Of a stretch of 64,000 nt of DNA, positions 3,791 to 53,776 are shown in pieces; position 1 is the first letter of the stretch; every line of letters starts with the position of its first letter. The notes below the pieces were generated by a model. That model was not told where the DNA came from. It did not search any database and was given only the letters and a program-made list of their open reading frames with translations. Location: the NCBI GenBank assembly GCA_964348415.1, contig CAYGCR010000009.1, forward strand, positions 649 to 64,648, written 5' to 3'. The position numbers were made by a program, and so were the translations under genes. Source of the DNA: an uncultured Ignavibacteria bacterium. GTDB taxonomy: Bacteria > Zixibacteria > MSB-5A5 > SM1-73.

Positions 3791-3862
3791 GCCGATGTAG
3801 CTCAACGGTAGAGCAACTGATTTGTAATCAGTTGGTTGGAGGTTCGATTCCTCTCATCGGCT
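3791..3862 (+). tRNA. tRNA-Thr (anticodon TGT)
   Basis: Cloverleaf GCCGATG / D-arm GCTCAACGGTAGAGC / anticodon stem ACTGA-loop TTTGTAA-TCAGT / T-arm GGAGGTTCGATTCCTCT / CATCGGC. No CCA encoded. Confidence 0.8.
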
Positions 3863-16237: not shown

Positions 16238-16589
16238 GTCGATCTATTTGGTTCAGAGGCCTTGCGGCGATTCCAAAAGACTTACTCTTAATCTTTCTTC
16301 CTTGCTCAAAGATACGCCCTGTAAACAGAACAGTTACACAGAAAAAAGATAGAAAAGAAACACAGCGACCCAGCCTAGCCGGAGGTCGAGTTCCTGATAC
16401 TGCCGGGAATCGCGGTTAATCTTTCTTGCCACCAGAGCAATTGTGTCTCTGCTTACAGTATCGGCCTGCGATAACGCGTTGGCAAGCCAAATCGCAAGTT
16501 TTTTGGTAAACTAGCAAAGTTAACCGTGGAGGGGAAATAAGAATGCAAATAGGTATGCTATCCAGAAGGATGCTGAAACGTTTATTTAG

Positions 16590-16663
16590 TGGGCCCAGCA
16601 GGACTCGAACCTGCGACCCACTGATTATGAGTCAGTTGCTCTAACCAACTGAGCTATGGGCCC
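16590..16663 (-). tRNA. tRNA with CAT anticodon (Met elongator or Ile2-lysidine type)
   Basis: Reverse complement GGGCCCATAGCTCAGTTGGTTAGAGCAACTGACTCATAATCAGTGGGTCGCAGGTTCGAGTCCTGCTGGGCCCA. Anticodon loop CTCATAA. Resembles ileX-type tRNAs. Confidence 0.85.
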
Positions 16664-19981: not shown

Positions 19982-20068
19982 GGAGGGTTAGTCCTAACTG
20001 GTAAGGCAGTGGACTTGAAATCCACCGGCCGCAAGGCCTTGCGGGTTCGAATCCTGCACCCTCCGCCA
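19982..20068 (+). tRNA. tRNA-Ser (anticodon TGA), long variable arm, CCA encoded
   Basis: GGAGGGT acceptor, anticodon stem-loop GTGGA-CTTGAAA-TCCAC, variable arm CGGCCGCAAGGCCTTGCG, T-arm GCGGGTTCGAATCCTGC, ACCCTCC-G-CCA. Confidence 0.85.
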
Positions 20069-22769: not shown

Positions 22770-23399
22770 TTGTCGGGCAGGATCTCATACGTTCGGCTCA
22801 ATGCACGAATCCGTGACTCTTGTCGCAAGTTAGTACGGTTGCTGAACTACGAACATGGTTTTCCCCCTCGGAACTCCGAATCATCTGCCGTTTTAGCGCC
22901 CCTCAACCTGCGGTCGGCCTTGGGTCTAGATCACTTCTGAATCTCTCCGGTTTGCTTCGGTCACCCATCCCGACAGTATGCTAACTCGCGCGGTCCCCTA
23001 CTTCTCGTCCAACACAGCTCTTTTCTTGCATGGCCCGATCACATTGCGCTGCGAGAATCACGTTGACTGCCTGAATCATAGCATGAGCTTATCGGGTAGA
23101 GGCATCCTTCAGGTGGAACTGCTACCGGGGTTTTGATTGAATCCAAGAAGCAGGCAGGGGGAGGAACTTTAGAAGGGCTTTGGCAAAGGACAATACGAAT
23201 GGCAAGAATAACTTGAGGCTTTTCTTTGGACAACCAGCTTAGAAAGCGCTGTTTAATTTAAGATGTTATCAAACGTTACAGGAAAGTATGTGGATAACTG
23301 CATCCCGATGGTGCTAAGTGTGGCGAGTTAAGCTGTTAATAGAAAACAAATTAACAAATTTTCCACAAACTCCCGGCAGTTACCAACATCAGTAGTCTC

Positions 23400-23804
23400 T
23401 CAAGGTTTGCTAGGTATGTCTACCTCGTCTGACTCCTCGCGAGGGACAGCCATGGGAACGGATTCTTTCATATTACACATCCCGTGAAACACCGCGCCTT
23501 CCTCGACGATCAGGTTTTTGGTGGTGATGTCCCCCTCCACCATTCCCTTAGACTGAAGCTCAATTCTCTCCTTTGCCAGAATGTTTCCGGCCACCTTGCC
23601 GCCAATCACCACAATTTTGGCGATCAAATCAGCTTCAATGCTGCCGGTGTCGCCCACGGCAAGAGACTCCGTGACCGAGACTCTTCCTCTTACTTTGCCG
23701 TCGACACGAAGCCCGCCGTTGACCTGGACAGTCCCTTCTATTATGGAGTCCTTTCCAATAACGGTATTCAACCCACTCACTCCTGTGTCTTTTTTGTTTT
23801 TCAT
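23400..23804 (-). CDS. bactofilin (DUF583) cytoskeletal protein
   Basis: Repeating beta-helix motif VIGKDSIIEGTVQVNGGLRVDGKVRGRVSVTESLAVGDTGSIEADLIAKIVVIGGKVAGNI. Start chosen at MKNKKD (23804), just downstream of the M23 gene stop. The longer ORF to 23954 overlaps that gene. Confidence 0.75.
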   Translation of the reverse strand: MKNKKDTGVSGLNTVIGKDSIIEGTVQVNGGLRVDGKVRGRVSVTESLAVGDTGSIEADLIAKIVVIGGKVAGNILAKERIELQSKGMVEGDITTKNLIVEEGAVFHGMCNMKESVPMAVPREESDEVDIPSKP

Positions 23805-23814
23805 TTTGTCGATT

Positions 23815-24645
23815 TCAACGTTGGGTTTGGAAATTCTCGGGATTGACAGGAACATCGTTTTCTCTGATCTCGTAGTGTAGATGGGGAGCCGAACTTCTTC
23901 CGGTGTTACCGGAAAGGGCGATCGCTTGGCCTCTGATGACAGCATCGCCGACATTGACCAGATTCGTCGAATTGTGCCCGTAGTAGGTCATGTAGCCACT
24001 TCCGTGATCGATTGCCACCAGAAATCCATAGGTATCATCCCAGCCAGCAAAGGCCACTTTGCCGTCCGCCGTCGCCCTCACTTCTGTTCCTATCTTTGCA
24101 GCGAAATCCACGCCGGGATGCTCGCGTCCGAACCCGGGAATACTCATGGAGAAGCCTTGAGTGATCCATCCCTCCACAGGGACTCCCGCCGGAATGTGTC
24201 TCAACGAGTCGGACGCCTCCATGATTGAGTCCAAAGCATAGAGACTGGCTTCCTGCCCTTTAAGCAGATTATCAGCCACCAACGCATCCTCCGACTCCAT
24301 AGCCTGAGTGTAGCTGGCAAGCCCTGCTGTTGTCTGTCCGGAATACTCGGCCCCGGCCAGCTGGGCTACTCTCTGAACAAAGCTCTGGTACTCTCTGAGC
24401 TCCTTTTCCAGCTCCATCACTTTGGCACTGTATCTTTTCAGCCTTTCGTTTTCCTGCTTCAGCGACTTGCCGAGGATCACCTCGTAAAGCAGTTTTCCGT
24501 GAAGGATAGACAGAACAAGCACGAAAACCACAAGCAATCCTGCTACACTTGCTATCGCCCGGGTGGTGAGGAAAGACAACTTGAACTTCAGGCTCTTCGG
24601 GCTTCCCTCCGGAACTATTAAGAAGTTGACGTATCTTTTCGCCAT
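23815..24645 (-). CDS. M23 family metallopeptidase (LytM/EnvC-like) with N-terminal TM and coiled coil
   Basis: HPGVDFAA...DHG...HLHYE M23 signature (HxxxD, HxH). N-terminal TM LVVFVLVLSILHG plus coiled coil. Confidence 0.85.
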   Translation of the reverse strand: MAKRYVNFLIVPEGSPKSLKFKLSFLTTRAIASVAGLLVVFVLVLSILHGKLLYEVILGKSLKQENERLKRYSAKVMELEKELREYQSFVQRVAQLAGAEYSGQTTAGLASYTQAMESEDALVADNLLKGQEASLYALDSIMEASDSLRHIPAGVPVEGWITQGFSMSIPGFGREHPGVDFAAKIGTEVRATADGKVAFAGWDDTYGFLVAIDHGSGYMTYYGHNSTNLVNVGDAVIRGQAIALSGNTGRSSAPHLHYEIRENDVPVNPENFQTQR

Positions 24646-24711: not shown

Positions 24712-25596
24712 TTATAGAGTTATCGACAACAATTCCAATATCCTGGATAGGTCTTCCTCTGAATAAAACTCTATCTGGACCTTCCCTCCTTTGCCTTTCG
24801 CCAGAACCTTGACTGACGTTCCGAAAAACTCTTTCAACTTCTCCTCCACTTCAAAAAACGCCGGGGAAGTCTTCTTCTTGGGTCTGGAGCCAGGAGTCTT
24901 CTTCTTTCCGTACGCTAAATCTTCGGTGCTTCGCACAGAAAGCCCCTCTTTGACCACTCGTCTGGACAAGGCTACTTGTTCTCTTTCACTGGATAGCGAA
25001 AGTATAGCCCGAGCGTGTCCCTCCGATAGCTTTCCGCTTGACATCAGCTTCTGTACCTCCTCGGGCAAGCTTAAAATTCTCAGGGTGTTGGCAACCGAGG
25101 AGCGGTCCTTCCCTATTCTTTGCGCCACCTGTGTCTGAGTGAGGAGGCACTCCTCTAAAAGCCTCTTGTAGCCTCTGGCGGTATCAATTGGATTCAAATC
25201 CTCCCTTTGAAGATTCTCGACCAAGGAGAGTTCCAGCATCTGTTCTTTGGAGAGCTTTCCCGCTATCACCGCCGGAACTGTCTCCAAGCCCAGCTTTTTT
25301 GCCGCCATAAGTCGTCTTTCCCCAGCAACCAATTCAAATTCATCTCCCACCTGTCTGACCACCACCGGTTGTATGAGTCCCTTTTCCTTTATGGAGGCAG
25401 CAAGCTCGGAGAGCTTGCCCTCGTCGATTCTGGTGCGGGGTTGATAGCGGCTTGACTTGATCTTATCGATCTTCAGATTCACCAGCCCTGTCTCCGCCTG
25501 CTTCTCTGCCTTCAGCAGCGCTTGAGGACGTTCAGGGATCAGAGCCTCCAGACCTTTTCCCAGAGCGTTTCTACTCATTGGGGACCTCTCCAACAT
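24712..25596 (-). CDS. parB: chromosome partitioning protein ParB (Spo0J)
   Basis: ParB box [33 protein letters not shown]. Overlaps the upstream parA. Confidence 0.9.
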
Positions 25597-26461: not shown

Positions 26462-27493
26462 GAGATTTTAACAGAAAAATCTCCGGCGCAAGTCCATTGC
26501 TCGCCAACAGGCGAAAGGTCCGCCACTTGACGCACCGAATTTTCTTCACATCCAACTCACAACGTTGGCAATTGTCGTTTACGAAAAACACTCCCGGCCC
26601 AAATCCTAGTGGTCGATTTGGTGGCCCAGCGTTGTTTTTTTTGAGATAGCCAGGAAGAAAGTGAAGGCCAGCGGCGCGACTCTTAGATGTGAACCCGTTT
26701 CTGACGGGATTGAGGGTGATGCAGGTGAACTCTCTCGAAACTTTAACAAGAGAGTGCACGAAGATCTCGTAGACGCGGATCGCCTTGCGAAAGCGGGGAC
26801 AGTCGCTGGGGATGATGCCGAGAAACCTTGACACTTGCAGATACTATCTCCAGTTACTCGGGTTTGGGGACTATTTGTTCTCATATTTCACCGACGCAGA
26901 AAAAATGTAACGCTTAGCCGTAGCCAGGAATAAATCATCCAAAATTCGTGTCGTCCGCGTCGCCTGACAGCGTCTGGTACCTTGCCTCAACTCAGGATGG
27001 CCAGTTTAACCTTTTTCCGCAACGGGACGTAAGGTGATGACAGCGGCAGGCATACTTGGCACCACTGCGAGTTGAAGAAACAAACCCTTGCCTTCCACCG
27101 CTGCAAGTCCAGTTTTGAGGCTAACGGGAAGAAGTAATGCTGCCGATCGATCATAAGATTCCCGTGGTTAGACCAAAAGAGGCGGACAGACTGACTGTAT
27201 CGGAGCCCATCGATTATCCCTTTTTCTGCTTAGAAGAATCAAGGTTGCGCCCGGTTCTTACTTTTGCTTCCTTCGGGCGGAAATCCTAGTTTAGAAGCCC
27301 CCCTTTCTCACTCCTGCGATGGTTCTTGTCACGAAAAACAACAGGGCTTAGGAGAAAGAAAGGCAGCTTTGCGATCGAAGTTATTGGCTGCGTGAGAGAT
27401 CGAGCGTTTCGGCCACCCCAACTGGATGTTTGTAACCATCTGAACTTGGGATTCAACAGTCTGTAAAAAATCCATTAATATCAAAAAAATCAC

Positions 27494-27522
27494 TTGACAC
27501 AGGGACCACAATTAGGTAATAT
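27494..27522 (+). promoter_or_regulatory. strong sigma70-like promoter TTGACA-17-TAATAT with about 170-nt leader
   Basis: ttgaca at 27494-27499, a 17-nt spacer, taatat at 27517-22. Followed by a 170-nt 5'UTR and RBS aaggaggg before ATG 27698. Confidence 0.5.
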
Positions 27523-27697
27523 AGGTTCTGTCGAGGGAGCACGCAAAACCCTTTCTTCTGGTATACGGGAGGCATAATGCCACCATTATGGTATGGCGCA
27601 GGATAATAGACTCGCCGGCTCGCTCATTGGTGGTTCAACGGTTTTGAGTTCCGAAGCGATTGTTTTGATTCCTGCTGGTTAAAGCAAGGAGGGTGTC

Positions 27698-28663
27698 ATG
27701 GCAAAGGCAATAGAGCAGTCGGAATCCGGTCTGACAGTAGGCCATTTTGGCCTCGGTTCCCGGGGTGGCACGGTGGGAAGCATCCGGCACCAAGTGCACG
27801 ATGGAGACACCATCAGTGTCCGTGCTCTTGGCAATTTTGGCATTCGTTTCCTTGGAGTAGATGCCCCCGAAATCAGTTTCAGACTCCCAGACGAGACCGC
27901 GTTCAGCGGGCTTGGGCACGAGAGATGGGAAGCTTTCTTAACGGATCCGTTTGCACAGGGCTTACGACCGTTTGACCCCCCTATCGCTCCGGGATTGCGC
28001 AACTACCTGCTACAGCAGTTAGGGCCGGGCGTCGCAACGAACCAGCACAATCATGCCGAGGCTGCCGAAGATGTCCTGGAGCAAGAGGTGGTCAAAGACG
28101 TGCGGGCACTTGGCCAGTCAGAAGATGACTTCAAGTTCTTCCTTGCCTTCGCTCACGAAATCGTGGATAGATACGGCCGTCTTCTCTGCTTTATCAACCG
28201 CCACCAACCTGACCCCGCTGTTCCAGAGAAACGGCGGCCGCTTTCGTACAATGAGCGATTATTGAAAGAGGGTAAAGTTGCCCCCTATTTCATATTTCCC
28301 AATTTAGATCCATTCAGGAGCAAGGAATCCATCACCGAGGCTGTCATTCCTGCGGGCACCGCCGCTAATCTGGCCAGTGGGGACAATGCGCTGGGTCTTG
28401 CAAGAAAGTGGGTCCGCGACGCCAGAACAAGAAGCGGCGGAATATTCGATGGGAACGATCCATTGAAACTGCAGCCTTTTGAGGTAAGATTCCTGGCCAG
28501 GAGAAAGCCACCAGATCGCTGGGTCATTGACCTGGGCAAGAACGATAATGCCCTCATGCGGCCGCAGAAATACTACAGCGTACCCAGGGTGGAGGACCGC
28601 CTGTACATCCCCAGCCAGTTCGTACCCTTATTCGTGGAAGCAGGATGGCAAAAGCAGAATTAG
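27698..28663 (+). CDS. staphylococcal nuclease (SNase/thermonuclease)-fold protein with internal insertion and C-terminal extension
   Basis: VHDGDTISVRALGNFGIRFLGVDAPE (Ca-site DGDT plus catalytic GVDAPE). Later DRYGRLLCFI and SYNERLLKEGKVAPYFIFPN match SNase DKYGRGLAYIY / [21 protein letters not shown]. No signal peptide. Confidence 0.7.
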   Translation: MAKAIEQSESGLTVGHFGLGSRGGTVGSIRHQVHDGDTISVRALGNFGIRFLGVDAPEISFRLPDETAFSGLGHERWEAFLTDPFAQGLRPFDPPIAPGLRNYLLQQLGPGVATNQHNHAEAAEDVLEQEVVKDVRALGQSEDDFKFFLAFAHEIVDRYGRLLCFINRHQPDPAVPEKRRPLSYNERLLKEGKVAPYFIFPNLDPFRSKESITEAVIPAGTAANLASGDNALGLARKWVRDARTRSGGIFDGNDPLKLQPFEVRFLARRKPPDRWVIDLGKNDNALMRPQKYYSVPRVEDRLYIPSQFVPLFVEAGWQKQN

Positions 28664-29200
28664 TCTCGGCTTTCAACCGGAGGTAAAAGGACCGGAAGCT
28701 CGTGCACATGCGAGCAATCTCCGTCGTAAAGACTCCGGTCCGGCTACTGGTGGTTTCGCCTTCGAGACCGAGCCTCTTGCGTTGGCACGGCAACCTGTCA
28801 GCTTTTGTGTACAGACAAAAATAGAATAGACTGAAACAAAAAGGTATAGACTCCCACGTAATCTGGATGTCTCGGGAGAAGGATCTTGGGGATAAGCCGC
28901 TGAAACGAGTGCGGCAAGCAGAGTGTCATCAAGCCACCTGAGCCCTCTTTGGATGGTTCATGTGGTCAGGTCGGCGGTGAACGTTCTCGGACCCCAACAG
29001 CTGCGAGACAGACCAAGGCATTTGCATCTGGTGTGAGCAGATTTGACCGTCCAAGCAGGTTTTCTTAACATTCCAACGCACATGGAGGTGCAGTACTCGC
29101 CTCATCTTTTCGAGGATCGACCCTTCTTCGTTCGCTGCAAAAAGGCCAGCGGGCTGGATATAGTACAAGGCATGCGTCAGCATGAGAAAGGAGGTGTACC

Positions 29201-29662
29201 ATGAGGCGTATCACACTCGTGCTTGTTGCGGGATTGGCTTTGATCCTTGCCGGTTCCGCCATATACGCACTGAACTGCAATGTCTCCTTCAGCTCGGTGC
29301 TCAGGATGGATGCTAGCGGCTATTGCCAGGCTAATGACTGGGTCATCGACAATCAGACTGACTTTTGCAGCTTCTGGAACCAGGCCAATGTTATCAGGCT
29401 TCCCCCTCCACCATGTCCGGAGATCGACTTTTCAACCTATGTGGTTATTGTGACCGCTATGGGGACCAGGCCCAATGGCTGCTACGGCACGGAAATCTAC
29501 TGCATTGAGGAGGACCAAAAGGGCAACTATACCGTCTATGTGAAGGATTACTATCCTAGAAAGGGATGGTTCTGCACTCAAATGATAGTCTGCCCGCTTC
29601 ATGCAGTCAAGGCACCAATTCCGAGGGGGACGGTAACGTTCCAGCATGAAATAGGTCAGTAG
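29201..29662 (+). CDS. secreted PrcB_C-domain protein
   Basis: Signal peptide MRRITLVLVAGLALILAGSAIYA. PEIDFSTYVVIVTAMGTRPNGCYGTEIYCIEEDQKGNYTVYVKDYYP...CPLHAVKAP fits the PrcB C-terminal domain pattern. Confidence 0.55.
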   Translation: MRRITLVLVAGLALILAGSAIYALNCNVSFSSVLRMDASGYCQANDWVIDNQTDFCSFWNQANVIRLPPPPCPEIDFSTYVVIVTAMGTRPNGCYGTEIYCIEEDQKGNYTVYVKDYYPRKGWFCTQMIVCPLHAVKAPIPRGTVTFQHEIGQ

Positions 29663-29738
29663 ATCGTTTGGTGCGAGTAGCAGGTGATGTTCCGGCCCGC
29701 TGGCTTTAGCTACAGCCCCAAAGACTATCGATTCTTAC

Positions 29739-30413
29739 TTAAAAACCCGGTCGCAGCTTCTCCGCGATAACCAGCCACCTGAAAAGCCGGAATGAAGGCG
29801 TTTCGATTTTCACTATATCTACAATTCGGCAGTTTTCACTGCAGTTTATCTCTCGAACTTCCCTGTAAGCGCCTTTCCCCTTATACGCCACCAATAATCC
29901 GTCTGCTTTCAGGAAAGGCATGCCGAGTCTGACCATATCTCTGAGTTTCCCCACTGCCTTGGCAGTAACCAGATCGAATCTTTCTCTCAAGCCAGTCTGA
30001 TCTGAGAGTCCCTCGGCTCGCTGGTCGAGTACCGATATGTTCTCAAGCTTCAGAACATCACTCAGTTTCCGCAGAAATAGCGTCTTCTTATGAATCGATT
30101 CCACCAGTGTCATTTTGACATCATCTCTGACGATTTTGATGGGGATAGCCGGAAAGCCTGGTCCAGATCCAAGATCCAAAAGCTCTGCCTGATTCGGCAG
30201 GTTGACAGCCTTGAAGATCGAGAGTGAATCGACGAAGTGTCTCATGATGCGGTCGTCTGTAGCATCCTTTTTGGAAACAAGATGAATTCTCTGATTCCAT
30301 TCCAGAAGCAGGCCTACGTAATCTTGGAAACTCTCTATCATCTTCTCAGAGAGGCTTACTCGGAATGAGGAGCAGATTCCTTTGAATTGGCTTATTTGAT
30401 GAGGGGAGAGCAT
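29739..30413 (-). CDS. rsmG: 16S rRNA (guanine527-N7)-methyltransferase RsmG (GidB)
   Basis: SAM motif LLDLGSGPGFPAIPIKI. Typical length. Downstream of mnmG. Confidence 0.9.
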   Translation of the reverse strand: MLSPHQISQFKGICSSFRVSLSEKMIESFQDYVGLLLEWNQRIHLVSKKDATDDRIMRHFVDSLSIFKAVNLPNQAELLDLGSGPGFPAIPIKIVRDDVKMTLVESIHKKTLFLRKLSDVLKLENISVLDQRAEGLSDQTGLRERFDLVTAKAVGKLRDMVRLGMPFLKADGLLVAYKGKGAYREVREINCSENCRIVDIVKIETPSFRLFRWLVIAEKLRPGF

Positions 30414-30444
30414 TTGATATGATCAGATTGGGCAAGAGTCAGGC

Positions 30445-30460
30445 TGTTTCACGTGAAACA
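30445..30460. promoter_or_regulatory. perfect 16-bp palindrome TGTTTCACGTGAAACA (candidate operator), between mnmG stop and rsmG start
   Basis: Exact inverted repeat with CACGTG core, 32 nt upstream of the rsmG ATG. A second copy sits directly upstream of mnmG. Confidence 0.5.
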
Positions 30461-30470
30461 TCAGAAGCTG

Positions 30471-32381
30471 TCAACGGATTGAGCGGACATCATCCGTTCT
30501 ATCCGTTTGATCCGTTGACCGTTTTGCTCCGAACTGCTTGAGATAAACCATCAAGATAGCTACGTCCCCGGGTGACACACCAGAGATGCGGGAAGCTTGT
30601 CCGACTGAGACCGGCTTGACTCTTTTCAGTTTCTCCAGAGCCTCCCGTTTGAAGCCCTTGAGGCCATCGTAGCTGAAGTTTTCCGGTATCCGCATCGACT
30701 CCAGCCTCTTGGACTTCTCGATCTCCTTATTCTGCCTTCGAATATAGCCCTCGTATTTGATCTCCAGCTCCACCTGGTCAGAAACCTCTGGCGCTACCTC
30801 CTGCGCTTCCCAGTCCACCTTTCTAACATCCTGGTAGGTGATCTGCGGCATCCTCAATATCTTTGCCAGAGACATCTTTCGACTATTCTCCATTTCCCCC
30901 AGAAGATGAGGAAAAGAGGACAGAGAAACGAACACTCGTTTCAGCCGAGCTTTCTCCTTCTCCACCCCTTCCCTCTTTTCTCGATACTTGACGTAGATCT
31001 CGTCTGAGACCAGTCCGTATGTGTGTCCGTATTCGAGCAGCCTCTGGTCCGCGTTGTCTTCTCTCAGCACCAGCCGGTATTCGGCTCGCGAGGTGAACAT
31101 GCGATAAGGCTCCTCCGTACCTTTGGTGACCAGGTCATCAATTAAGACTCCAACGTAGGCCTCGCTCCTTTCCAGCACGAAGGGTGGGGCCCCCTTTAGC
31201 TTCAAAACTGCGTTTATCCCCGCCATAATTCCCTGAGCTGCCGCCTCTTCGTACCCGGACGTCCCGTTGATTTGCCCGGCAAAATAGAGATTCTCCACCA
31301 GCTTTGTCTCCAGCGTATGCTTCAGCTGTATCGGAGGGAAGTAATCATATTCTATCGCGTAGCCGGTTCGCATCATCCTGGCATTCTCAAGACCGGGGAC
31401 GGTTCTGAGAGCTCTGAACTGAACATCTTCGGGCAGGCTGGTGGCAAAGCCATTCACGTAGTACTCGGCAGTCCCCAGTCCTTCCGGCTCAAGGAATAGC
31501 TGGTGTCTGGGCTTCTCTCGGAACTTGACCACCTTATCCTCGATGGAAGGACAGTACCGGGGTCCAATCCCCTGGATCTTGCCACTGTAGAGGGGCGATC
31601 TGTCCAGATTATTCAGGATTACCTCATGGGTGCCTGAGTTGGTGTAAGTCAAATAGCAGAGGGCTCTGTTCCGGGGCGGGTTCTTTGTCCGAAGAGAAAA
31701 CGGCTTGGGGTGCTCATCCCCGTGCTGAGGAATAGTCTTTGAGAAATCGATGGTTCTTCCGTCCAGCCGGGGAGGTGTCCCGGTCTTCAAACGTCCTGAG
31801 CGAAAACCGAGCTTGACCAGATTCTCAGTGAGACCGCGGGCTGGGAATTCTCCTGCTCTGCCCGCCGAGAACTGCTCTAATCCTATGTGAATCAAACCAT
31901 TGAGAAACGTGCCGCAGGTCAGGATGACAGCATTTGAGTAATAAGCCATCCCCGTTCCTGTGACCACTCCGTAAGCTTTTCCGCTCTTCACCAGGACTTC
32001 GATAACCATATCCTGTTTTATAAAAAGGCGGTCTTGATTCTCGATAGATTCGCGCATTGCCAGACGATACAACGACCTGTCGTTCTGGGTACGCGTGGAC
32101 CAAACCGCCGGGCCTTTCTTCAGATTCAGCGTCTTGATCTGGATGGCTGTCTTATCTGCTATGAAGCCTATCTCCCCCCCCAAGGCATCGATTTCTTTAA
32201 CCAATTGCCCTTTAGCCTGACCGCCTACTGCCGGATTGCATGACATCTGGGCGATGGTCTCCTTGTTCATGGTAAAAAGGAGGGTCCTCTGCCCCATCCT
32301 GGCGGCAGCCAGTGCTGCCTCACATCCGGCGTGCCCGGCACCTACAACGATTATGTCGAATTCCTCTTCGTACGTCGGCAT
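30471..32381 (-). CDS. mnmG: tRNA uridine 5-carboxymethylaminomethyl modification enzyme MnmG (GidA)
   Basis: FAD motif [20 protein letters not shown]. Full-length 636 aa. Confidence 0.95.
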
Positions 32382-32383
32382 AC

Positions 32384-32398
32384 TGTTTCACGTGAAAC
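32384..32398. promoter_or_regulatory. second copy of palindrome TGTTTCACGTGAAAC immediately 5' of the mnmG start codon
   Basis: 15/16 match to the 30445 copy. Ends 3 nt from the mnmG ATG on the coding strand. Confidence 0.5.
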
Positions 32399-32481
32399 GG
32401 GTTCGTATCGGTCGCATTCATGCGACCACAGAACAGCGTAGCCGGAGCCATGCGGTTTTCAAGAATCTACGCATCTGCGGC

Positions 32482-33063
32482 TCAAGCTTTTTGCGTGTTT
32501 CTCTCAATCCTGCTCAAGACCTCCAGCATCTCCCTCAAGAGCTCCTCTTGACCGCGCTCTCTTGGTTTATCTTCTGTTGTCAGAGCGTCGGACTTCACCA
32601 AGCGCACCTTCTGCATTATCTCTTCCTTGATCCTATCGAAATCATCCAGACCTACCAGCTTCCCTTCAGGTGACGTGTTGGCACCATGGCCGGCAGTCTG
32701 GACATTCAAGTGCCCTAAATCAAAACGTCTTTCCAAAGGTCCCTGAAGCGTGTTCAGGTTGGTTATCTTGTGGAAGGGAATCACCTTTCTCTTTTTCCAG
32801 AAGACACCGCTCTCCAGTCGCAGATCCTGCGACGAGAGCTCATATCTCAGCGTCTTGATATATGCGAGTAAATACAGCTGAAGCAGAATAAATGTGATGA
32901 CTCCCAGAATTCCTATGACCAGAGACCACAAATCGTAGAGATAGCGGGGCCTCTGTCTCAGGATCTGAAGCACAACCACTGGCAACGGACAATAAAGGAC
33001 GAATACGAGGGAATTGATCAGCGTGTACAAATTCTTGATTTTGGGGGCCGGCTTGATTTCCAT
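32482..33063 (-). CDS. membrane protein with bacterial PH (bPH_2 / YdbS-like) domain
   Basis: Two N-terminal TM helices then KVIPFHKITNLNTLQGPLERRFDLGHLNVQTAG, typical of the bPH_2 membrane-flanked domain. Confidence 0.55.
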   Translation of the reverse strand: MEIKPAPKIKNLYTLINSLVFVLYCPLPVVVLQILRQRPRYLYDLWSLVIGILGVITFILLQLYLLAYIKTLRYELSSQDLRLESGVFWKKRKVIPFHKITNLNTLQGPLERRFDLGHLNVQTAGHGANTSPEGKLVGLDDFDRIKEEIMQKVRLVKSDALTTEDKPRERGQEELLREMLEVLSRIERNTQKA

Positions 33064-33152
33064 GATATTTTCTCCTTTACTGGCATCTTTGCTGTTTCAT
33101 ATTCGGTCGGGGCCGCATCCGTGCGGCCTGTCGGGTTCGATGAACCGAACCC

Positions 33153-33685
33153 CTACGATTCCCCGTAGCGCTCCCAGTGCAGAACTTCAGACAGCGCCTT
33201 CTTCGGCGGAGGCTTGGACCATTGAACCGGTTCACCTAGAGCAATCAGCAACAGGATTCTCCTGTCTTTGGGCACCGCTAGCAGTTCCTTGAATTTCTCT
33301 TCATGCGGACGCATCTGACCTTCAATCCAGCAGCTTCCCCAACCTAAGTCTCTGGCTGTCAATAAGATATTCTGTGTGGCCGCTGATCCATCCTCTCCCC
33401 AGTATTCATGCGACCCATCAAGGACAACTGCAATTATGGCAGATGTTCCGTCAAACTTACCGTCATCCTGTGTGCTAAACTTCCTTCTGGTTCTAAAATG
33501 ACTGGTGATTTGCTTTAGCACACCTCTCCCTGTGTCACAATGATGAAATCCCATCTCTGTTCATTCCTGGCTGAGGGAGCAAGTCTACCTGCATCCACCA
33601 TCTTCTCTAAATCGCTTTTAGGAATCTTCTTTCCGGTAAACGTTCTGATGGCTCTTCTGATCTCAATCGCTTCCCAAACATCCAT
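33153..33685 (-). pseudogene. nitroreductase family gene disrupted by a frameshift
   Basis: N-terminal part MDVWEAIEIRRAIRTFTGKKIPKSDLEKMVDAGRLAPSARNEQRWDFIIVTQGEVC* (33685-33515) is the canonical nitroreductase N-terminus. The C-terminal part (QNILLTARDLGWGSCWI) continues in the +1 frame (ORF 33153-33554). Single-nt indel near cagggagaggtgtgctaaag, no homopolymer. Confidence 0.65.
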
Positions 33686-33755: not shown

Positions 33756-36095
33756 CTACTTGTTTTTGACCTCACACAAAACCGCATGAAACGGATTCAA
33801 AATCACCTGTCGGGGCTCCAGAGGTGCTTTGGGCAATTCATACTTATTGTGAGGCTTGTCCACCCACAACCGCAGCACCGCATACATATCCCCGCCGAAA
33901 TCCAAAAGCACCGGAACCCACATCTTGAAATCCTCCGGAACCTTTTCCTGGGTAATCTCACAGGTCACGACGTATTTGTCGGCCACTTGCTCGATGTCGT
34001 AAGAGAATATGTAAGTTGGGATATCAACGCCGTAAACCCATTGATCGAAGAACCAGTCCATATCCTCGCCCATGTGCTTCTCCACAATCTCCTTGAAATC
34101 CTCGGTGCAGGCGTTCTTTCCCCGGTAAGTTTCGGCGAAATCCCTCATCATCTCTTTGAACCGATCATCGCTTTTGGTGTCAAAGTCCATCATTATGTTT
34201 CTGAGCATGTGCACCACGTATGCGCCCTTTTCGTAGACCAAGATGCCATAGTCCTGGGACTTTGATGAATTGAGGCGCCGTCCCAACCATATAGGTCCCA
34301 CTTTTGAACCCTCAGCCCATTTGTACCCCTTTCCCGTGATGTCCTTTCGCCATTCCTCAAGCTCTTCGAAGAAAGCCTCATTGTCCTGCATAGACATCTG
34401 GGCATACCAAACTCCGGAGTATTCGGCAAAACCCTCACAGAGCCACTGATCATGGTACCTCTCCCATCCCACAACGTTTCCCCACCATTGGTGAGAGACT
34501 TCGTGCGCGCGAAACGACTCGGTCCGAAACCTCGTCTCCTGGATTGCCTCATCTACTGCAAATGTTCCCCAAGACAGCCGCAGCAGTCCCGGCAGGCCCT
34601 GACCATAGAAAGAGGGAATCTCAGTGGCTGCGATCTTGGAAAAAGGGCAATCGCCGTAGATGGTCTGAAAGAAATTCAAGCTGTTAACAACGTCTGCTGC
34701 TACGCTTTCCTTGGATTTCTTATATTTCGTCATCATTTTTCTGTGACTTTTCTCCAAATGGTAAACGCAGACCGGAGGTATCCCCTCCATATCTACCTCG
34801 TAAGTCTCGAATTTCCCGTAGTTGAATGATGCCACAGAAACGGGGATGTCCTCAATCCATCGAGTACACAGAGAGTCGCCCTCAACCCACTCCTCTGCTT
34901 TCTGTCCTATCGAGATCAGCTGGTATCCCTCAGGACACTTGAAAGTCAGATCATAGGTGGCTCTCTTGAGATAACCATATTGGGGATACCAAAAGGTAGA
35001 AGACCTGATATAGAGGTCTCCGAGCCAGTCCTGCAAGATTATCTGTTTGGCAGAATACTTGAAGGTCAACTTGCGCTCCTCGCCTGACCTGGTTGGGCGG
35101 GAAAGGAACACAGAAACTCCATATTGCTCATCCCTCTCCTTGACGAAGAAAAGCGAATCGCCCTCATCGTCTGCAATTCGCTCGATTTCCAGGTCTCCGT
35201 GCAGATCAAAATCGATCACCTTAACACCATCCACTAAACTCTCAAAATCCATCTCTACAGCTGCGGATAGTTCTTCCTTGATGTTAATGCTCACCTCCAT
35301 CTTGTAGTAGGTCACTTTGATCTCATCCTTGTCTTCATGGGGAATAGGAGTGTATTTCTCAAGCGGGTTCTTAAGGTAATCTTCTGCTCTGTGAAAGGAG
35401 CAAACCAAGTCGCGCGCATCTATTCCGGGCCTGGGATCGGGCTTTTCCAGGCTCACCTCTTCCACCTGTTTCGGATCGAAGGTGAAAAAAAGGCGGCCTA
35501 AGTCTTTTGTTTCGATGTCCGCGTAGAAGAAACCGTTCGCTCGATCGGGGTGGCTGGTCAGGTATGATGAATCAGCCAGAATGTCGGACAGAACGCGAAC
35601 CCAGAGGTTTCCGCCGGTCTCTTTCAAGAACCGTCTCGGGGCATCTTTCCTCAGGAACTCGGGGGCTGTCATCATTTCTGCCTTAGAGAAACTCAGCATG
35701 CGTTCCAATTCCCTATCGGTCGAGTCAGAAAACAACATATACAGCTTCTCAAACTCTTCCGATAGAGTCCCCTGCTTCGTGAACCGCCTCAACTGATATC
35801 GCTCGATCTCCGTGGGTGGTGAGAACTCAAAAACTCCCTCTCCCACAAAAACCGCTCCGATGCTTCTCCCCTGCACCGGCTCGAACGCGTGTATCCTTCC
35901 CTGATTGAGCCTGAAAACTGCCACGTCCCTTTTCAAGACCAAGCTCTCCACTCTGGCCACCATGTTCTCGTCGAACGAGATGTTCTTGATCTGGTCATAA
36001 AGATTCGCCCATTGATCGAGCTCTTGTCCGAATGAAATCCCAGCCGCTGCAAGACCAATGACTATCAACAGTGAAATCATCTTGAGGGCTCTCAT
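33756..36095 (-). CDS. secreted M1-family zinc aminopeptidase (aminopeptidase N-like)
   Basis: HEVSHQWWGN...x18...EGFAEY zinc motif (HExxHx18E). Signal peptide MRALKMISLLIVIGLAAAGISFG. Start ATG 36095 with RBS gggggtgagg (the ORF track extends to 36263). Confidence 0.85.
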   Translation of the reverse strand: MRALKMISLLIVIGLAAAGISFGQELDQWANLYDQIKNISFDENMVARVESLVLKRDVAVFRLNQGRIHAFEPVQGRSIGAVFVGEGVFEFSPPTEIERYQLRRFTKQGTLSEEFEKLYMLFSDSTDRELERMLSFSKAEMMTAPEFLRKDAPRRFLKETGGNLWVRVLSDILADSSYLTSHPDRANGFFYADIETKDLGRLFFTFDPKQVEEVSLEKPDPRPGIDARDLVCSFHRAEDYLKNPLEKYTPIPHEDKDEIKVTYYKMEVSINIKEELSAAVEMDFESLVDGVKVIDFDLHGDLEIERIADDEGDSLFFVKERDEQYGVSVFLSRPTRSGEERKLTFKYSAKQIILQDWLGDLYIRSSTFWYPQYGYLKRATYDLTFKCPEGYQLISIGQKAEEWVEGDSLCTRWIEDIPVSVASFNYGKFETYEVDMEGIPPVCVYHLEKSHRKMMTKYKKSKESVAADVVNSLNFFQTIYGDCPFSKIAATEIPSFYGQGLPGLLRLSWGTFAVDEAIQETRFRTESFRAHEVSHQWWGNVVGWERYHDQWLCEGFAEYSGVWYAQMSMQDNEAFFEELEEWRKDITGKGYKWAEGSKVGPIWLGRRLNSSKSQDYGILVYEKGAYVVHMLRNIMMDFDTKSDDRFKEMMRDFAETYRGKNACTEDFKEIVEKHMGEDMDWFFDQWVYGVDIPTYIFSYDIEQVADKYVVTCEITQEKVPEDFKMWVPVLLDFGGDMYAVLRLWVDKPHNKYELPKAPLEPRQVILNPFHAVLCEVKNK

Positions 36096-36314
36096 AACCT
36101 CACCCCCTGAGTTCTGTCGGCTTGTCGTTTCAATGAAGTTACCCGTGAAAAAGGTAACTATACCCAACCAGATTAATATAGGCGGAGACTGTATAAATGT
36201 AAAGCAACTTTTGTTTCCGTCCTTAAGAGTGGCCTGGGCCGAGACGATAAACAAATTTGTCAAGCTGGGTAGATTATCTGTTCTTTAAAATAAATCGCAA
36301 AAGGAGGGGCATCC

Positions 36315-36997: not shown

Positions 36998-38404
36998 TCA
37001 TTTTCCAATACAGAATTCAGAAAATATCTTATTCAAGATGTCATCGGTGACCGTTTTCCCGATCACCTCGCCGATTGCATCCAGCCCAGCTCTCACATCC
37101 AGCGCCACAAACTCCGGACTCATACCCTTCTTCAAGCTGCCTCTTGCCAAAAACAGGCTTCTTTTTGCTCTGGTGATAGCATCTTTATGCCTTAAGCTTG
37201 AGATGATCACGCTTTGAGTCCGGTCCTTCTGTAGGACGCGGGAGGTCGATACGATCGTCTCCTTTAGCCGCTCGAGACCTTCTCCTGTCAGAGCAGAGAC
37301 CTTGACTATCGACCCCTCCGTAAGCCTTTCCTGGTTTTTTGCTATCAAATCGGGCAGAGCTATGTCAATTTTGTTGAATACGGTCAGGTATTTCACCTCT
37401 TTCATTTGCCCTTGTAGATCCAGATCCTCTTGGTCGACCTTAATGGAGGTGTCGATGACCAGAAGGAGTAAATCCGCCTCACTCATCTCGATCTTTGTTC
37501 TCCTGATCCCTTCCAGTTCGATGGTATCTCCGGAGATGCGGTAGCCCGCCGTGTCCACCAATCTCACCGGGATTCCCTGTAAGTTGGCGTATTCTGAGAT
37601 GACGTCCCTGGTGGTTCCGGGGATGGGTGTCACAATCGCTCGATCCTCCTTAAGAAGAGCGTTCAGCAGGCTGGACTTGCCCACGTTGGGCTTGCCCACG
37701 ATGACGACGTTCAAGCCTTCTTTGAGAATCTTGCCCTCCCCATACGTGGCAAGCAGATTCTGCAGCTCCTTTTCGATTGATTCAATCTCCTCAAGAGTCT
37801 TGTTCCTATCCAGAGGCTCCACATCTTCCTCTGAAAAATCTATTTCCACCTCAAGCCTGGCCAGCATGTCGATTAATCGGTCTCGATAGGAGTTGATCTT
37901 CTCTGAAACATCGCCTTTCAAGTGTTTCAGAGCCAGTTTAAGTCCCAGATCGGTCTTAGCCCTGATTAGCTCTGCCACAGCTTCCGCCTGGGAGAGATCT
38001 ATTCGCCCGTTGATGAAGGCTCTCAGGGTGAATTCGCCTGGCTCCGCCAATCTGGCGCCGCATTTTAGCGCCTGCTCCAGCACTCTTGTCAAAACCAGCT
38101 GCCCTCCATGACAGCTTATCTCAACCAAGTTTTCCGCAGTATAGCTTTTGGGAGCAGCGAAGACGGTAAGGAGAACCTCATCCACAACTTCGTTAGTCTC
38201 AGAATCAACTATTTCGCCATAACTGACCCGGTGTGAAGAAAGCTGGTCAACTGACCTTTCTCCTTTAAAGATTTTTCCGGCGATTTTGATGGAGTCCTTG
38301 CCGGAGATGCGAACTACGCCTATCCCTCCCTCACCCAACGGGGTGGAGATTGCAGCTATTGTGTCCTCAAGCCCTGAAGCGGTATCTCTTCCCTTCTTTG
38401 CCAT
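36998..38404 (-). CDS. mnmE: tRNA modification GTPase MnmE (TrmE)
   Basis: G-domain NVVIVGKPNVGKSSLLNALL. C-terminal CIGK motif. 468 aa. Confidence 0.95.
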   Translation of the reverse strand: MAKKGRDTASGLEDTIAAISTPLGEGGIGVVRISGKDSIKIAGKIFKGERSVDQLSSHRVSYGEIVDSETNEVVDEVLLTVFAAPKSYTAENLVEISCHGGQLVLTRVLEQALKCGARLAEPGEFTLRAFINGRIDLSQAEAVAELIRAKTDLGLKLALKHLKGDVSEKINSYRDRLIDMLARLEVEIDFSEEDVEPLDRNKTLEEIESIEKELQNLLATYGEGKILKEGLNVVIVGKPNVGKSSLLNALLKEDRAIVTPIPGTTRDVISEYANLQGIPVRLVDTAGYRISGDTIELEGIRRTKIEMSEADLLLLVIDTSIKVDQEDLDLQGQMKEVKYLTVFNKIDIALPDLIAKNQERLTEGSIVKVSALTGEGLERLKETIVSTSRVLQKDRTQSVIISSLRHKDAITRAKRSLFLARGSLKKGMSPEFVALDVRAGLDAIGEVIGKTVTDDILNKIFSEFCIGK

Positions 38405-38622: not shown

Positions 38623-40176
38623 TCAGTCGCAAGGCGGTGAGCCTCCTCTAAACAAGTAGCTTATTACATAGACCACATCACCGGATTGAACTACACCGTC
38701 ACAGTTAGCGTCCCCAGCCTGCAAGATCGGGAGCGGCGGGGTCCCACCTCTGAACAAATAGCTTATCAGATAGACCACATCTCCAGCCTCAACGGCCCCG
38801 CTTTGATTGACATCTCCGCGCCAGAATTGAGCATATCTAATGGTGGTACAATCCTTCACAGTCAAGATCCCATCACTGAACCCGTTGACGTACACATTGC
38901 CAACGCTGTCCACTGCCAGGTCACGCCCGCCGTCAAAGCCAGCAACCGGTCCACCGTATGGTCCATCGTATCTTTCCACCCAGACCTCGTTACCTGAAGG
39001 ATCGTACTTGATGGTGGCGTAGTCGGGGTCTCCTTCTGTGCCAGGAGTTTGCCCGGTGACATAGACGTTTCCGGAATCATCTACTGCCAAAGCAAAAGCG
39101 CAATCGAAGGCACCCTCTACACCGTACAGCCTTACCCAAAGCTCATCACCCGAGGCATCATAAACTATGGTGCCATAGTCCTTGCAGTCGTATCACCCGC
39201 CCTCCATGTGGCTGGCCCCTGTCACATAAACTCGGCCCTCATGATCCACGGCTATGGCTTTGGGTACATCCGGCCCGTCTCCAGGACCGTTGTACCTTCT
39301 TACCCAGGCGGTGTCACCATTCGGATAGTACTTTATCGTGACGTAGTCGTCGTCTGAATCAGTGCTGTAACTTGTCCCGGTTACGTAGACATTGCCGGAA
39401 GCGTCCACAGCGACGGCTCTACCCGCATCCGCTCCGTTTCCCGGACCGTTGTACCTGCCCACCCAGGCGGTATCTCCGTCAGGATAGTACTTTATGGTTG
39501 CGCAGTCCGTGGCTGTCTCACTGGCGTAACTTTCTCCGGTTACGTAAGCAAAACCGAAATCATCTATGGCCAAGGCGTGAGCGCAATCAAGTTGATTTCC
39601 GGGTCCGTCGTAAGTCCTCAGCCAGGCTGTATCGCCGTTTGGATAGTACTTTATGAGGACATAGTCCTCATTTGTTTCCTCGTCGAGACTTTGTCCAGTG
39701 ACATATGCATTGCCGGAAGCGTCCAGCTCTACGGCCGTGGCAAAATCCTCGCCGTTGCCAGATCCATTATGCCGCCATACCCAGACCTCGCTGCCGGAAG
39801 AATCATACTTTATGGTGGCAATGTCTGAGTCCGTCCCCACTCCAAAGCTCCATCCGGTCACGTAAACGTTACCCGAGCCATCCACAGCTATGTCCTCAGT
39901 CACGTCATTCGAGCCGGCCGGTCCGTCGTAGCTTCCAACCCATTTAGCAATTCCATCTTTCGAGTACTTTATGGTAAGATAGTCGGTCGTGATGATATCA
40001 GAGACGTAACTGTTACCTGCAACGTAGAGATAGCCGGAAGCATCTAAAGCTAAGGCACCGCCTTCGACGATTGCCGGTCCGGCGTATCTCCTCACCCAGG
40101 CGGTATCGACGGACTGGGCAGCGGCAGACGCGCTAGCCAAAAGCAAAATCGCCAATATACAGAACTTTCTGGTCAT
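38623..40176 (-). CDS. secreted SBBP beta-propeller-repeat protein with C-terminal double dockerin-like module, containing an in-frame TGA (39193-39195). Candidate selenoprotein or disrupted gene.
   Basis: Signal peptide MTRKFCILAILLLASASAAAQ. About 8 repeats SGNVYVTG.S....DY.TIKY..G...W. The reading frame continues uninterrupted through TGA (…VTGASHMEGG-TGA-YDCKDYGTIVYDASG…) into ORF 38623-39090, which ends with two dockerin-like Ca loops (GDVNQSGAVEAGD / GDANCDGVVQSGD). Confidence 0.55.
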
Positions 40177-40197
40177 ACTCCGACTCCTACCTTAGGT

Positions 40198-40530
40198 TTA
40201 GGGGTTAGCCTTGCTCTCATGTGGCTTCTGGCAGAACTGTTTCGTCTCCTTGTATTTGCCGATGAACTCCTGATGTGACATGAACCCGTAATAGGTCTCC
40301 GGTTTGTCCGGCTCAAGTTCGTAAGCTTTATGAAGTACAGAGACGTCCTTCACGCCGTAGTGATTCCAGAATCTGAGAGGGTAGTACTCATAAGTGCCGG
40401 GGCTTCTCCGGCTTGCCGTCTAGGGACTGACTGCGCACGCGTAATCGAAGCACAGGAGCAGGAAAAAGAATATCCACAGTGCGTGGTGAAATCGTCTGGT
40501 GATTCTGATCCTCCTCATCTTGAGATTCAT
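40198..40530 (-). pseudogene. small secreted protein ORF interrupted by an in-frame TAG (40420-40422)
   Basis: Strong RBS aaggagg-ATG. MNLKMRRIRITRRFHHALWIFFFLLLCFDYACAVSP-TAG-TASRRSPGTYEYYPLRFWNHYGVKDVSVLHKAYELEPDKPETYYGFMSHQEFIGKYKETKQFCQKPHESKANP*. Signal-peptide-like N-terminus. Not in the ORF track because of the amber codon. Confidence 0.3.
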
Positions 40531-40843
40531 GCCTCCTTTGGCAGTGGCATCTCACCCTTTAATACGCACCACGTTCAGATGGGTTCAGAGTTTTTTCCAG
40601 AAGCCGGCTTCAGCCAACAGCGTCGGATAGGCCTTGCGACCATATCCGACCTAACTTTCTAACGAGAGCCACTGCGCAAGCCGATTTCCACAATATCATT
40701 TACAATGGCCTCACTTGCAGAAGGTCGGTGTTGGCACTTTGTTTCTGCAAACTCGTACTTATCCTTTGTGACTCTAATTGGCTGCCTCTTTCCCGCTACC
40801 ATGATGTGCGACTTGCTTTTATCTAGTGTTATCTGCAATGATA

Positions 40844-40865
40844 GGGGCGGGATGAATTCCCGCCC
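40844..40865. repeat. palindromic hairpin repeat GGGGCGGG-ATGAATTC-CCGCCC (copy 2)
   Basis: Identical core to copy 1. Located 3' of the 40977-42815 gene on the minus strand. Confidence 0.6.
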
Positions 40866-40976
40866 TTATCAGATCCACGATTTACTTGTTGGGGTCGCAC
40901 TCATGCGGCCGGTGGGCCTCCGTCCTTCGACAGGCTCAGGATGGTCAGTTTAAGGTCAGACTCATCTGCCTGAAGC

Positions 40977-42815
40977 TTAACCACAGCCTGGCGGGTCACC
41001 GTTTCTGAAAAGGTAGTTGACCAGAAAGACCACGTCACCGGGTTCAACCGCGCCGTCACAGTTGGCATCTCCGGCCCACAGAGGATAGGGAGGAGAATCA
41101 CCTCTGAAAAAGTAGTTTATCATATAGACTATATCCGAAGGGTCAACCACCCCGTCTGCGTTAGCGTCGCCCCGCAAGAAGACCTGGAAGGTCCAAGTTT
41201 CGGTTGACCAGGTTTCTGCATACTCATCATAAGCTCTCACCTTCCAGTAGTAGGTCCCCAGATCAAAGGCAGCCGTGTAACCGCTAGTCAAGAGGCCTCC
41301 GCAGACAGCCGTGGAGTCCGGATGGAAGGAAGGAGAATGACTGACATACAGGTCATATCTCACTTCGTCCAGGGGATCGGGGTCTATGGCATCTTCCCAT
41401 TCGAAGATCACAATGAAACTCAAAAGAGAGCTGTCCGGGGGCATAAGGAGGGAAAACGCATCAGGAGGGGAGTTCTCCACATACTTTATGGTGGCGTAGT
41501 CGTATCCTGTGGCACCACCTTCACTATAACCGGTCACGTAGACGTTGCCGGAATCGTCCAAAGCTATGTCACGCCCCCCGTGCCAGCCCTCTGCCTGCCC
41601 GTGGTACCTTTGTATCCAAGCCACGCTCCCCAAAGAATCATACTTAATGGTGGCATAGTCCACGTACGGTGACATATCCATACTCTCTCCGGTTACGTAG
41701 ACATTGCCGGAATCGTCTACTGCCAGAGCATAAGGTCGATCAGAGTCGAAAGGTCCGTAGTACGTTGCTTCCCAAAGGACATTACCCGAGGCACCATAAA
41801 CTATGGTGCCGAAACAGCTGCAGGACGCTCACCCGGTCGAGGTTCGGAGGGCTCCTGTCACGCAGACTCGACCCCCGGCATCAACCGCCAAATCATACGG
41901 TCTATCCGGTCCGTTCACCGGACCATTATATCGTCTTGTCCAGGCAGTATCTCCATTTGGGTAGTACATTACCGTGAGGTAATCCTTGTCAGTGCTCTCT
42001 AAGTAACTCTGACCTGTCACATATACGTTACCCTGTGGGTCTACAGCTATGGCAAGAGCTGCATCCCAGGCGGCACCCGGACTGGTGAATCGCCGCACCC
42101 ACGCGGTGTCACCGTTTGGATGGTATTTTACGGTGGCATAGTCGAAGCCCGTCGCCGCGGTCAGGCTTTGTCCGGTCACCAGGATGTAACCAGACTCGTC
42201 CAAGGCCACCGCCGTAGCGTAATCGTAGTCGTTGTCCGGGCCGTCGTATCTCCTCAGCCACAGGGTGTCTCCGGCAGGGCCATACTTTATTGTGACATAG
42301 TCCCTGTTTGTGTCCTCATACAGGCCTTGGCCGGTCACATAGACATTCCCCAAATCGTCCGCGGCTACCCCCGTGGCAAAATCCTCACCGTTAGACGTTC
42401 CGTTATACCTCCTGACCCAAAGCTCGTTTCCGGAGCCATCATACTTCACGGTGGCCCAATCCACCCCTGTTTCAGAGCCGGTGCTCCAGCCGCTCACGTA
42501 CACATTTCCAGAAGCGTCCACTGCTATCACGTTGGCCACGTCATCGAGGCCGGCCGGTCCGTCGTATCTTCTGACCCAGGCGGTGTCTCCATCTGGAAGA
42601 TACTTTATGGTGAGATAGTCCCACCATGTCCCACTGCCGGTACTGTATCCGGTGACGTACGCGTTGCCTGATCCATCAACTGCTATAGCCAGAGCCTTGT
42701 CCCAGGCGCTTGCCGGCCCGTCGTATCTGCTTACCCAAGCGGCTCCCATGTTCTGAGCTACTACCGGCGTACTTGCCAAAAGCAAGATCACAAAAACGAA
42801 AAACGTTCTGGTCAT
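40977..42815 (-). CDS. secreted SBBP beta-propeller-repeat / dockerin paralog with in-frame TGA (41829-41831) at the position homologous to the neighbouring gene. Candidate selenoprotein.
   Basis: Signal peptide MTRTFFVFVILLLASTPVVAQ (ATG 42815). Frame continues …VTGALRTSTG-TGA-ASCSCFGTIVYGASG… into ORF 40977-41681. C-terminal dockerin-like loops (GDANADGVVDPSD / GDANCDGAVEPGD). 33 nt downstream of the TGA are nearly identical to the paralog. Confidence 0.55.
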
Positions 42816-43096
42816 GCGGCGACTCCGTTTTGAAGGTGAGGAGCAGAATAGATGTCTTCTCTTGTATGAAGGTGTTCCACCACTACTATAACTCAAAAAT
42901 CCGAAAAATCAAGAAAAATCTTTCCCTGCGAACGCATACCTTGTCCCCTTCCCAGATCGCAGGTGTTAGGCAACAGTGACACGTTGACTCACAGTGTGCA
43001 TTGGGCCTTTCCTTAGTGCTCCCCATCAAGCGGATGAGAACAGATCAGTAGTAGGGGTCGCATTTATGTGACCCGCGGGTTCTATGAATTGAACCC

Positions 43097-53285: not shown

Positions 53286-53776
53286 GGGGAGTAGTTCGGT
53301 TGAAGCTGACCAATATCGCCTCCGTCGGTGAGAAGCTACCGGGGCTCTCTTTCTGTGCTTGATTTGTTAGAATCATATGCTTGGTACGAAATCACCCGTT
53401 CTAATCTTAGATCAGATTGCACCCTCAGAGATCCGATCGGGACATGTTTGCCGGAAGTTCTTCTGCTGCAGATGAGAGAGAACTGCGTTTTGGCTGATCG
53501 GGTCCGTAGAATTTACAGCTATTGCCCACGCCTTTCTGGAAGCTTAATCAGATTTGATTCGACTTTATCGTCTCATCAGTCGTATTTAGATGTTAGCCTC
53601 TGAGGCCTTGACCACCGAGAGCGTGGATCATGTCAAAAGAGCAGAAAATTGTTGACAAAAGTGGACATTGTATTAAATTAAAATTAGGCTAAACTGATAA
53701 GGTAAGTCGGGTTTAGCTTTTTTGTTGGGCTGTTTTGCTCCGGTCATCAATTGTGATCCTTCTCAGGAGGTTTTCC

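Follow-up and report, generated by a model that had tools for sequence, protein, structure and literature searches.

What are two nearly identical 16-bp palindromes doing at the two ends of mnmG in the genome of an uncultured bacterium of a Zixibacteria-like lineage? The stretch of DNA analysed here, 64 kb in length and referred to below as the window, carries one copy between mnmG and rsmG and another immediately ahead of the mnmG start codon. A sequence-only reading of this DNA had suggested either an operator for a dimeric transcription factor that co-regulates these two modification genes, or a leader-RNA hairpin that occludes the ribosome-binding region of mnmG. Here these suggestions are weighed against a role of the palindromes in chromosome segregation.

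Position and statistics of the palindromes

The two sites and the genes around them are the following, parS being the assignment argued for below.

30445..30460: predicted parS site 1, a perfect 16-bp palindrome, TGTTTCACGTGAAACA, within the 57 nt that separate mnmG from rsmG (exact match)
32384..32399: predicted parS site 2, a 15/16 copy TGTTTCACGTGAAACG with the 14-bp core intact
30471..32381, minus strand: mnmG (gidA), bracketed by both sites; TIGR00136 at 860 bits, above the curated cut-off
29739..30413, minus strand: rsmG (gidB), downstream of site 1; TIGR00138 at 144 bits, above the curated cut-off
36998..38404, minus strand: mnmE (trmE), upstream of mnmG; Pfam TrmE_N, MnmE_helical and MMR_HSR1
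44200-46683: gyrA, in the same window

The perfect palindrome lies where the sequence-only reading had placed it, 10 nt past the mnmG stop codon on the minus strand (the ORF ends at 30471). The spacer to the rsmG ATG (30413) is also present, but it measures 31 nt and not the 32 nt claimed. The second copy is real as well, although it ends at 32399 instead of 32398; read on the gene strand, it runs as CGTTTCACGTGAAACA (32399-32384), is followed by GT and then by the mnmG ATG (32381), and thus leaves a gap of 2 nt rather than 3 nt. The names given to mnmG and rsmG were borne out by the TIGR00136 and TIGR00138 scores listed above. When both strands of the 64-kb window were searched with up to three mismatches allowed, the two sites at 30445-30460 and 32384-32399 were the only ones returned, against 0.19 expected, in agreement with the earlier reading, which had seen the 16-mer nowhere else in the window. 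None of 100 dinucleotide-preserving shuffles (0/100) contained two or more matches.

A GC-rich hairpin, GGTCGCA-TGAA-TGCGACC, with a 7-bp stem lies at 32410-32427 on the minus strand, 10 nt upstream of site 2. It occupies the spacer between a bPH_2-domain gene (32482-33063) and mnmG and is without a T-run, and is therefore no canonical terminator.

The consensus of chromosomal parS is given as TGTTNCACGTGAAACA for "the vast majority" of bacterial chromosomes in a review, in which the parS of Hyphomonas is exactly TGTTTCACGTGAAACA (PMC7022226). The same TGTTTCACGTGAAACA served as the parS search consensus in a Hi-C study, after Livny et al. 2007 (PMC10197239). Compared with TGTTNCACGTGAAACA, site 1 matches at 16/16 positions and site 2 at 15/16, the mismatch of the latter falling outside its intact 14-bp core. 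The survey of Livny et al. 2007 (J Bacteriol 189:8693) is reportedly the primary one of parS distribution.

ParB and ParA encoded in the window

A pair of partition genes is encoded 4-5 kb downstream of the sites, on the same strand as mnmG.

24712..25596, minus strand: parB, by family a CTP-dependent clamp protein; Pfam ParB_N, HTH_ParB and ParB_C above their cut-offs; TIGR00180 at 179 bits
25571..26461, minus strand: parA, a Walker-type partition ATPase gene with a 26-nt overlap with parB; Pfam AAA_31 (232 bits), CbiA and MipZ

The similarity of ParA to the NCBIfam ParA/RepA partition families is weaker and stays below their curated cut-offs. The closest solved relatives of the window ParB are M. 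xanthus ParB (7bnk, 1e-52), Thermus Spo0J (1vz0) and Caulobacter ParB (6t1f), and a further one is H. pylori ParB bound to parS (4umk), the PDB relatives ranging from 1e-46 to 1e-52.

In Caulobacter ParB, the contacts with parS are made by Q162, G170, K171, S172, R173, N178, G201 and R204 (Jalal et al., PMC7383237). According to the same study, specificity for parS resides in R173 and G201, the Noc counterparts being Q173 and R201 together with lysines at 179 and 184 (PMC7383237). In Caulobacter numbering, assigned from motif spacing and an ungapped alignment to Myxococcus and Thermus ParB rather than directly to the Caulobacter chain, the window ParB has Q162, G170, K171, D172, R173, N178, T179, S184, G201 and R204. 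The motif spacings Q-x7-G, G-x7-N, N-x22-G and G-x2-R match those of Caulobacter exactly, and the recognition region aligns gap-free with Myxococcus and Thermus ParB, the common motif being GKxRSxVAN...GHARA. By these residues the window ParB is predicted to be of the R173/G201 "RXXG" class, which is parS-specific, rather than of the Noc type.

The Noc/NBS system of Firmicutes is similar, Noc being a ParB paralogue and the binding sites of both being 16-bp palindromes (NBS are of the ATTTCCCGGGAAAT type). At position 2 of the window site, however, stands the parS-type G, and the core is CACGTG where NBS is CCCGGG-type; the window ParB has R173/G201 where Noc has Q173/R201. With T179/S184 in place of K179/K184 in addition, a Noc/NBS identity was ruled out. 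The top NCBIfam score of the window ParB was to the Noc model, at 238 bits versus a cut-off of 315 and thus below it.

The nucleotide-binding GxxRxxA box of the window ParB reads GERRLMA (residues 92-98), which differs from the GERRxRA of model ParABS systems. The third arginine of this box II (GERRxRA) is present in Myxococcus and Thermus ParB, and its place is taken by Met in the window, Ile in L001 and Leu in L002, the last two being the closest relatives introduced below. As far as these proteins tell, the replacement is lineage-wide in the CTP-binding/spreading motif of Zixibacteria ParB.

Immediately downstream of parB, the minus strand encodes an M23 peptidase/LytM-type protein (23815-24645) and a bactofilin (23400-23954). 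Bactofilins organise ParABS in Myxococcus xanthus, whose ParB is the closest solved relative of the one studied here, and by analogy the bactofilin gene beside parB could provide a similar scaffold.

Conservation of the sites and their neighbourhood

Orthologous loci were collected by a scan for MnmG with one genome per species, which gave 80 loci (L001-L080). The closest are from Candidatus Zixiibacteriota MAGs, namely L001 (67% MnmG identity) and L002 (82%), and in both of them mnmG, rsmG, parA and parB are contiguous, with parAB in the same orientation. A perfect palindrome stands 0-1 nt from the mnmG ATG in L001, where a 14/16 copy follows 6 nt past the mnmG stop codon. In L002, where mnmG is truncated at its 5' end, a perfect copy stands ~32 nt before rsmG, in the same position as in the window. 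In the intergenic alignments of the window, L001 and L002, the palindrome is the sole long invariant block amid diverged DNA.

In the window itself ~3.3 kb (26462-29738) lie between rsmG and parA, containing plus-strand ORFs at 27698-28663 (no family) and 29201-29662 (weak PrcB_C match). Because mnmG-rsmG-parA-parB is contiguous in L001 and L002, this stretch looks like an insertion that has split an ancestral operon of the four genes.

Across all loci, the exact 14-bp core GTTNCACGTGAAAC is present in 47 of 80, and in none of the eight from Nitrospirota. Sixty-seven of the 91 distinct exact-core sites in the 80 loci are found within ~150 nt of an mnmG start or stop, in intervals that make up 1.75% of the bases. 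The density of the parS core at mnmG gene ends is thereby ~160-fold that elsewhere (binomial p ~1e-96; 80 loci). A look at orthologues had been named beforehand as one way of checking the motif, and the motif passed this check: in the 80 loci the motif is present in orthologous mnmG/rsmG regions, and it is concentrated at mnmG ends rather than scattered.

With up to two mismatches, the FCB group (Bacteroidota, Chlorobiaceae, Balneolaceae, Rhodothermales, Zixibacteria and KSB1) has a site within ~150 nt of an mnmG end in 59 of its 63 loci and at both ends in 31 of the 63. The 17 non-FCB loci, from Nitrospirota, Firmicutes, Planctomycetes, Spirochaetota, Desulfobacterota and Proteobacteria, have a site at one mnmG end in 9/17 and at both in 0/17 at the same threshold. 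The bracketing of mnmG, before its start and after its stop, is kept in Bacteroidota, Chlorobiota, Rhodothermota/Balneolales and Zixibacteria, and this steady arrangement across the FCB group is the sole point here that may be new, and then mildly so. The sequence of the orthologous sites is kept while their distance to the ATG varies (1 to ~110 nt); there are often two copies, and sites occur equally often past the stop codon.

The upstream site is often doubled in Flavobacteriia/Cytophagia (e.g. L003, L010, L012 and L017), the copies being ~46 nt apart. Most Bacteroidota loci have no parAB within 10 kb of mnmG.

In the commonest orthologue variant, TGTTCCACGTGAAACA, one half-site is altered and the other half has no compensating change. 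The TGTTCCACGTGAAAC type accounts for at least 20 of the 67 orthologous sites, and its one-sided change would leave a C.A mismatch in the sense RNA. Read across the orthologues, the asymmetry of the half-sites is the known parS degeneracy, the "N" of the consensus, and not RNA covariation.

Identity as chromosomal parS

Because the sequence equals the consensus, a cognate parA/parB pair lies nearby, the ParB has parS-type residues and the positions are conserved, we conclude that both palindromes are almost certainly chromosomal parS, the centromere-like sequences on which ParB of the ParABS segregation system loads. That two copies are statistically unexpected in the window at up to three mismatches (2 versus 0.19) also counts for this identity. 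The two palindromes flanking mnmG are thus a textbook feature, already known, and they represent no new regulatory element or mechanism.

The 16-bp palindrome is common to the window and to the B. subtilis Spo0J/parS, Caulobacter and Hyphomonas systems. As in these, a ParA/ParB pair is encoded near the sites, in the classic mnmE-mnmG-rsmG-parAB neighbourhood. There is no essential difference from known chromosomal ParABS, the host being an uncultured Zixibacteria-like lineage; compared with its closest relatives, the window has its parAB set apart from rsmG by the apparent 3.3-kb insertion. Plasmid systems of type Ia (P1 ParB/parS, F SopB/sopC, RK2 KorB/OB) likewise combine a helix-turn-helix ParB-family CTPase with palindromic sites, and in both cases promoters nearby may be silenced. 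Plasmid centromeres, however, have their own plasmid-specific sequences (PMC7022226), whereas the sites described here stand among chromosomal housekeeping genes and tRNAs. Besides its housekeeping genes, the 64-kb window contains three tRNA genes.

3791-3862, plus strand: tRNA Thr-TGT
16589-16663, minus strand: tRNA Met-CAT
19982-20068, plus strand: tRNA Ser-TGA

The tRNAs and housekeeping genes indicate that the replicon is a chromosome and not a plasmid.

Alternative explanations for the palindromes

The operator suggested by the sequence-only reading was right in one respect, namely that the palindrome is a specific site for a dimeric helix-turn-helix protein. That protein would be ParB, however, and dedicated co-regulation of mnmG and rsmG is unsupported. 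A perfect palindrome adjoining two start codons does resemble an operator, to which a dedicated dimeric transcription factor other than ParB might bind, but such a factor is extremely improbable given that the sequence is identical to parS and that the cognate ParB belongs to the parS-specific class. Moreover, the 16-mer is shared by phyla whose regulons are unrelated, standing as often past the mnmG stop codon as before the start, and no candidate regulator gene is adjacent. Still less can be said for a chance duplicate or a REP-like dispersed repeat without specific function, which has a short palindrome in its favour and nothing more. The 0/100 shuffles with two matches, and the keeping of orthologous positions across phyla with 160-fold enrichment, leave this explanation a practically negligible probability, and it was rejected.

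In the second proposal, the palindrome once transcribed would fold into a hairpin in the leader RNA and block the ribosome-binding region of mnmG. Site 2 probably lies in the 5' UTR, 2 nt from the ATG, and a short hairpin could form there. When 91 nt around the mnmG start were folded, however, the predicted stem was 5 bp rather than the 6 bp claimed, and the fold energy was ordinary (z = -1.1, with 27 of 200 shuffles folding as well). No relevant match to Rfam was obtained at the gathering threshold in the whole window or at E up to 1 in 30300-32600. Nor does the conserved sequence show covariation, the TGTTCCACGTGAAAC-type sites giving a C.A mismatch, and copies that lie past the stop codon or at a variable distance cannot act on a ribosome-binding site. 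With these results the hairpin proposal did not hold up, and we regard it as very improbable.

Proposed mechanism and possible effects on expression

If the palindromes are parS, family knowledge predicts that a ParB dimer would recognise each of them through its helix-turn-helix domains. CTP at the N-terminal GxxRxxA box would then shut the dimer into a clamp, which would leave parS and slide onto the flanking DNA, and with repeated loading of clamps a partition complex would come to cover several kb around mnmG-rsmG. It would stimulate the ParA ATPase and be carried along the nucleoid, and it may load the SMC condensin too, as in many species. Clamp nucleation, CTP-driven sliding, ParA movement and SMC loading have been reviewed (PMC7333895, PMC7022226). 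The details of the clamp and of spreading might differ in the window ParB from those of model ParBs, given the substitution in box II. By analogy with these systems, the main role of the sites is presumably chromosome segregation and not the co-regulation of mnmG and rsmG, and the expression of the two genes would be affected, if at all, as a by-product of ParB occupancy.

On type Ia plasmids, ParB silences promoters that lie close to parS. The sites could in the same manner have a cis-regulatory function as well, with ParB, bound or loaded at the mnmG 5' end, repressing or roadblocking transcription and thereby feeding back on parAB and the modification genes. We consider this dual role unlikely. 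Several observations are in its favour: site 2 is just 2 nt from the mnmG ATG, the distance being 0-1 nt in L001; parAB is directly downstream in the same orientation in L001 and L002; and the placement just before and just after mnmG is kept across the FCB group. In V. cholerae, moreover, some genes in the vicinity of parS can be repressed by chromosomal ParB (PMC4010829), and repression of this kind is reported for P. aeruginosa as well (PMC5521831). Of 20 genes reached by ParB spreading in V. cholerae, however, only 2 were silenced, and ParA1/ParB1 had no regulatory effect on the gidAB promoter (PMC4010829). Spreading and silencing are likewise uncorrelated in B. subtilis, per the same source (PMC4010829). 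Feedback at the level of the operon is inapplicable in the window because ~3.3 kb with opposite-strand genes part parAB from rsmG, and orthologous sites differ widely in how far they lie from the ATG. A promoter and terminator scan of 29600-33200 revealed no sigma-70-like promoter or terminator-like site overlapping either palindrome on the gene strand.

The bracketing of mnmG throughout the FCB group might also reflect functional coupling rather than mere ancestral retention, for example with ParB as a dosage-sensing brake on mnmG-rsmG(-parAB), or with mnmG transcription shaping the distribution of ParB clamps. This we hold to be decidedly unlikely. The placement of parS at mnmG is a modest lead on crosstalk between ParB and transcription, with a small chance of biological meaning.

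Possible origin proximity and use of the sites

A neighbourhood of mnmE, mnmG, rsmG, parAB and gyrA is typical of origin regions. With parS and parAB, the 64-kb window may belong to the origin-proximal partition domain of this Zixibacteria-like genome. No dnaA was present among the ORFs of at least 150 aa in the window, and no DnaA-box cluster was found in the 64 kb, a single perfect box being located at 23289-23297. The GC skew turns from plus to minus at ~22-24 kb (cumulative maximum), coinciding with a switch from plus- to minus-strand genes (convergent). No GC-skew minimum of the origin type occurs in the 64-kb window, and the flip at ~23 kb, with a polarity opposite to the origin signature, simply follows the gene-strand switch.

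The sites and parAB help to locate the origin in a MAG, although the window itself gave no direct origin evidence. In the FCB group, parS almost always hugs the ends of mnmG, and this could be a practical landmark for parS/origin regions in metagenome bins. In annotation, the two sites can be marked as the centromere sites of the chromosome.

Other features of the window

The regions 33756-36263, 38623-42896 and 51051-55999 contain three M1-family peptidase paralogues, two of them adjacent and with He_PIG, one of these having a dockerin domain in addition. The same regions contain two tandem pairs of ORFs with SBBP beta-propeller repeats and dockerin domains, which may be split or frameshifted larger genes.
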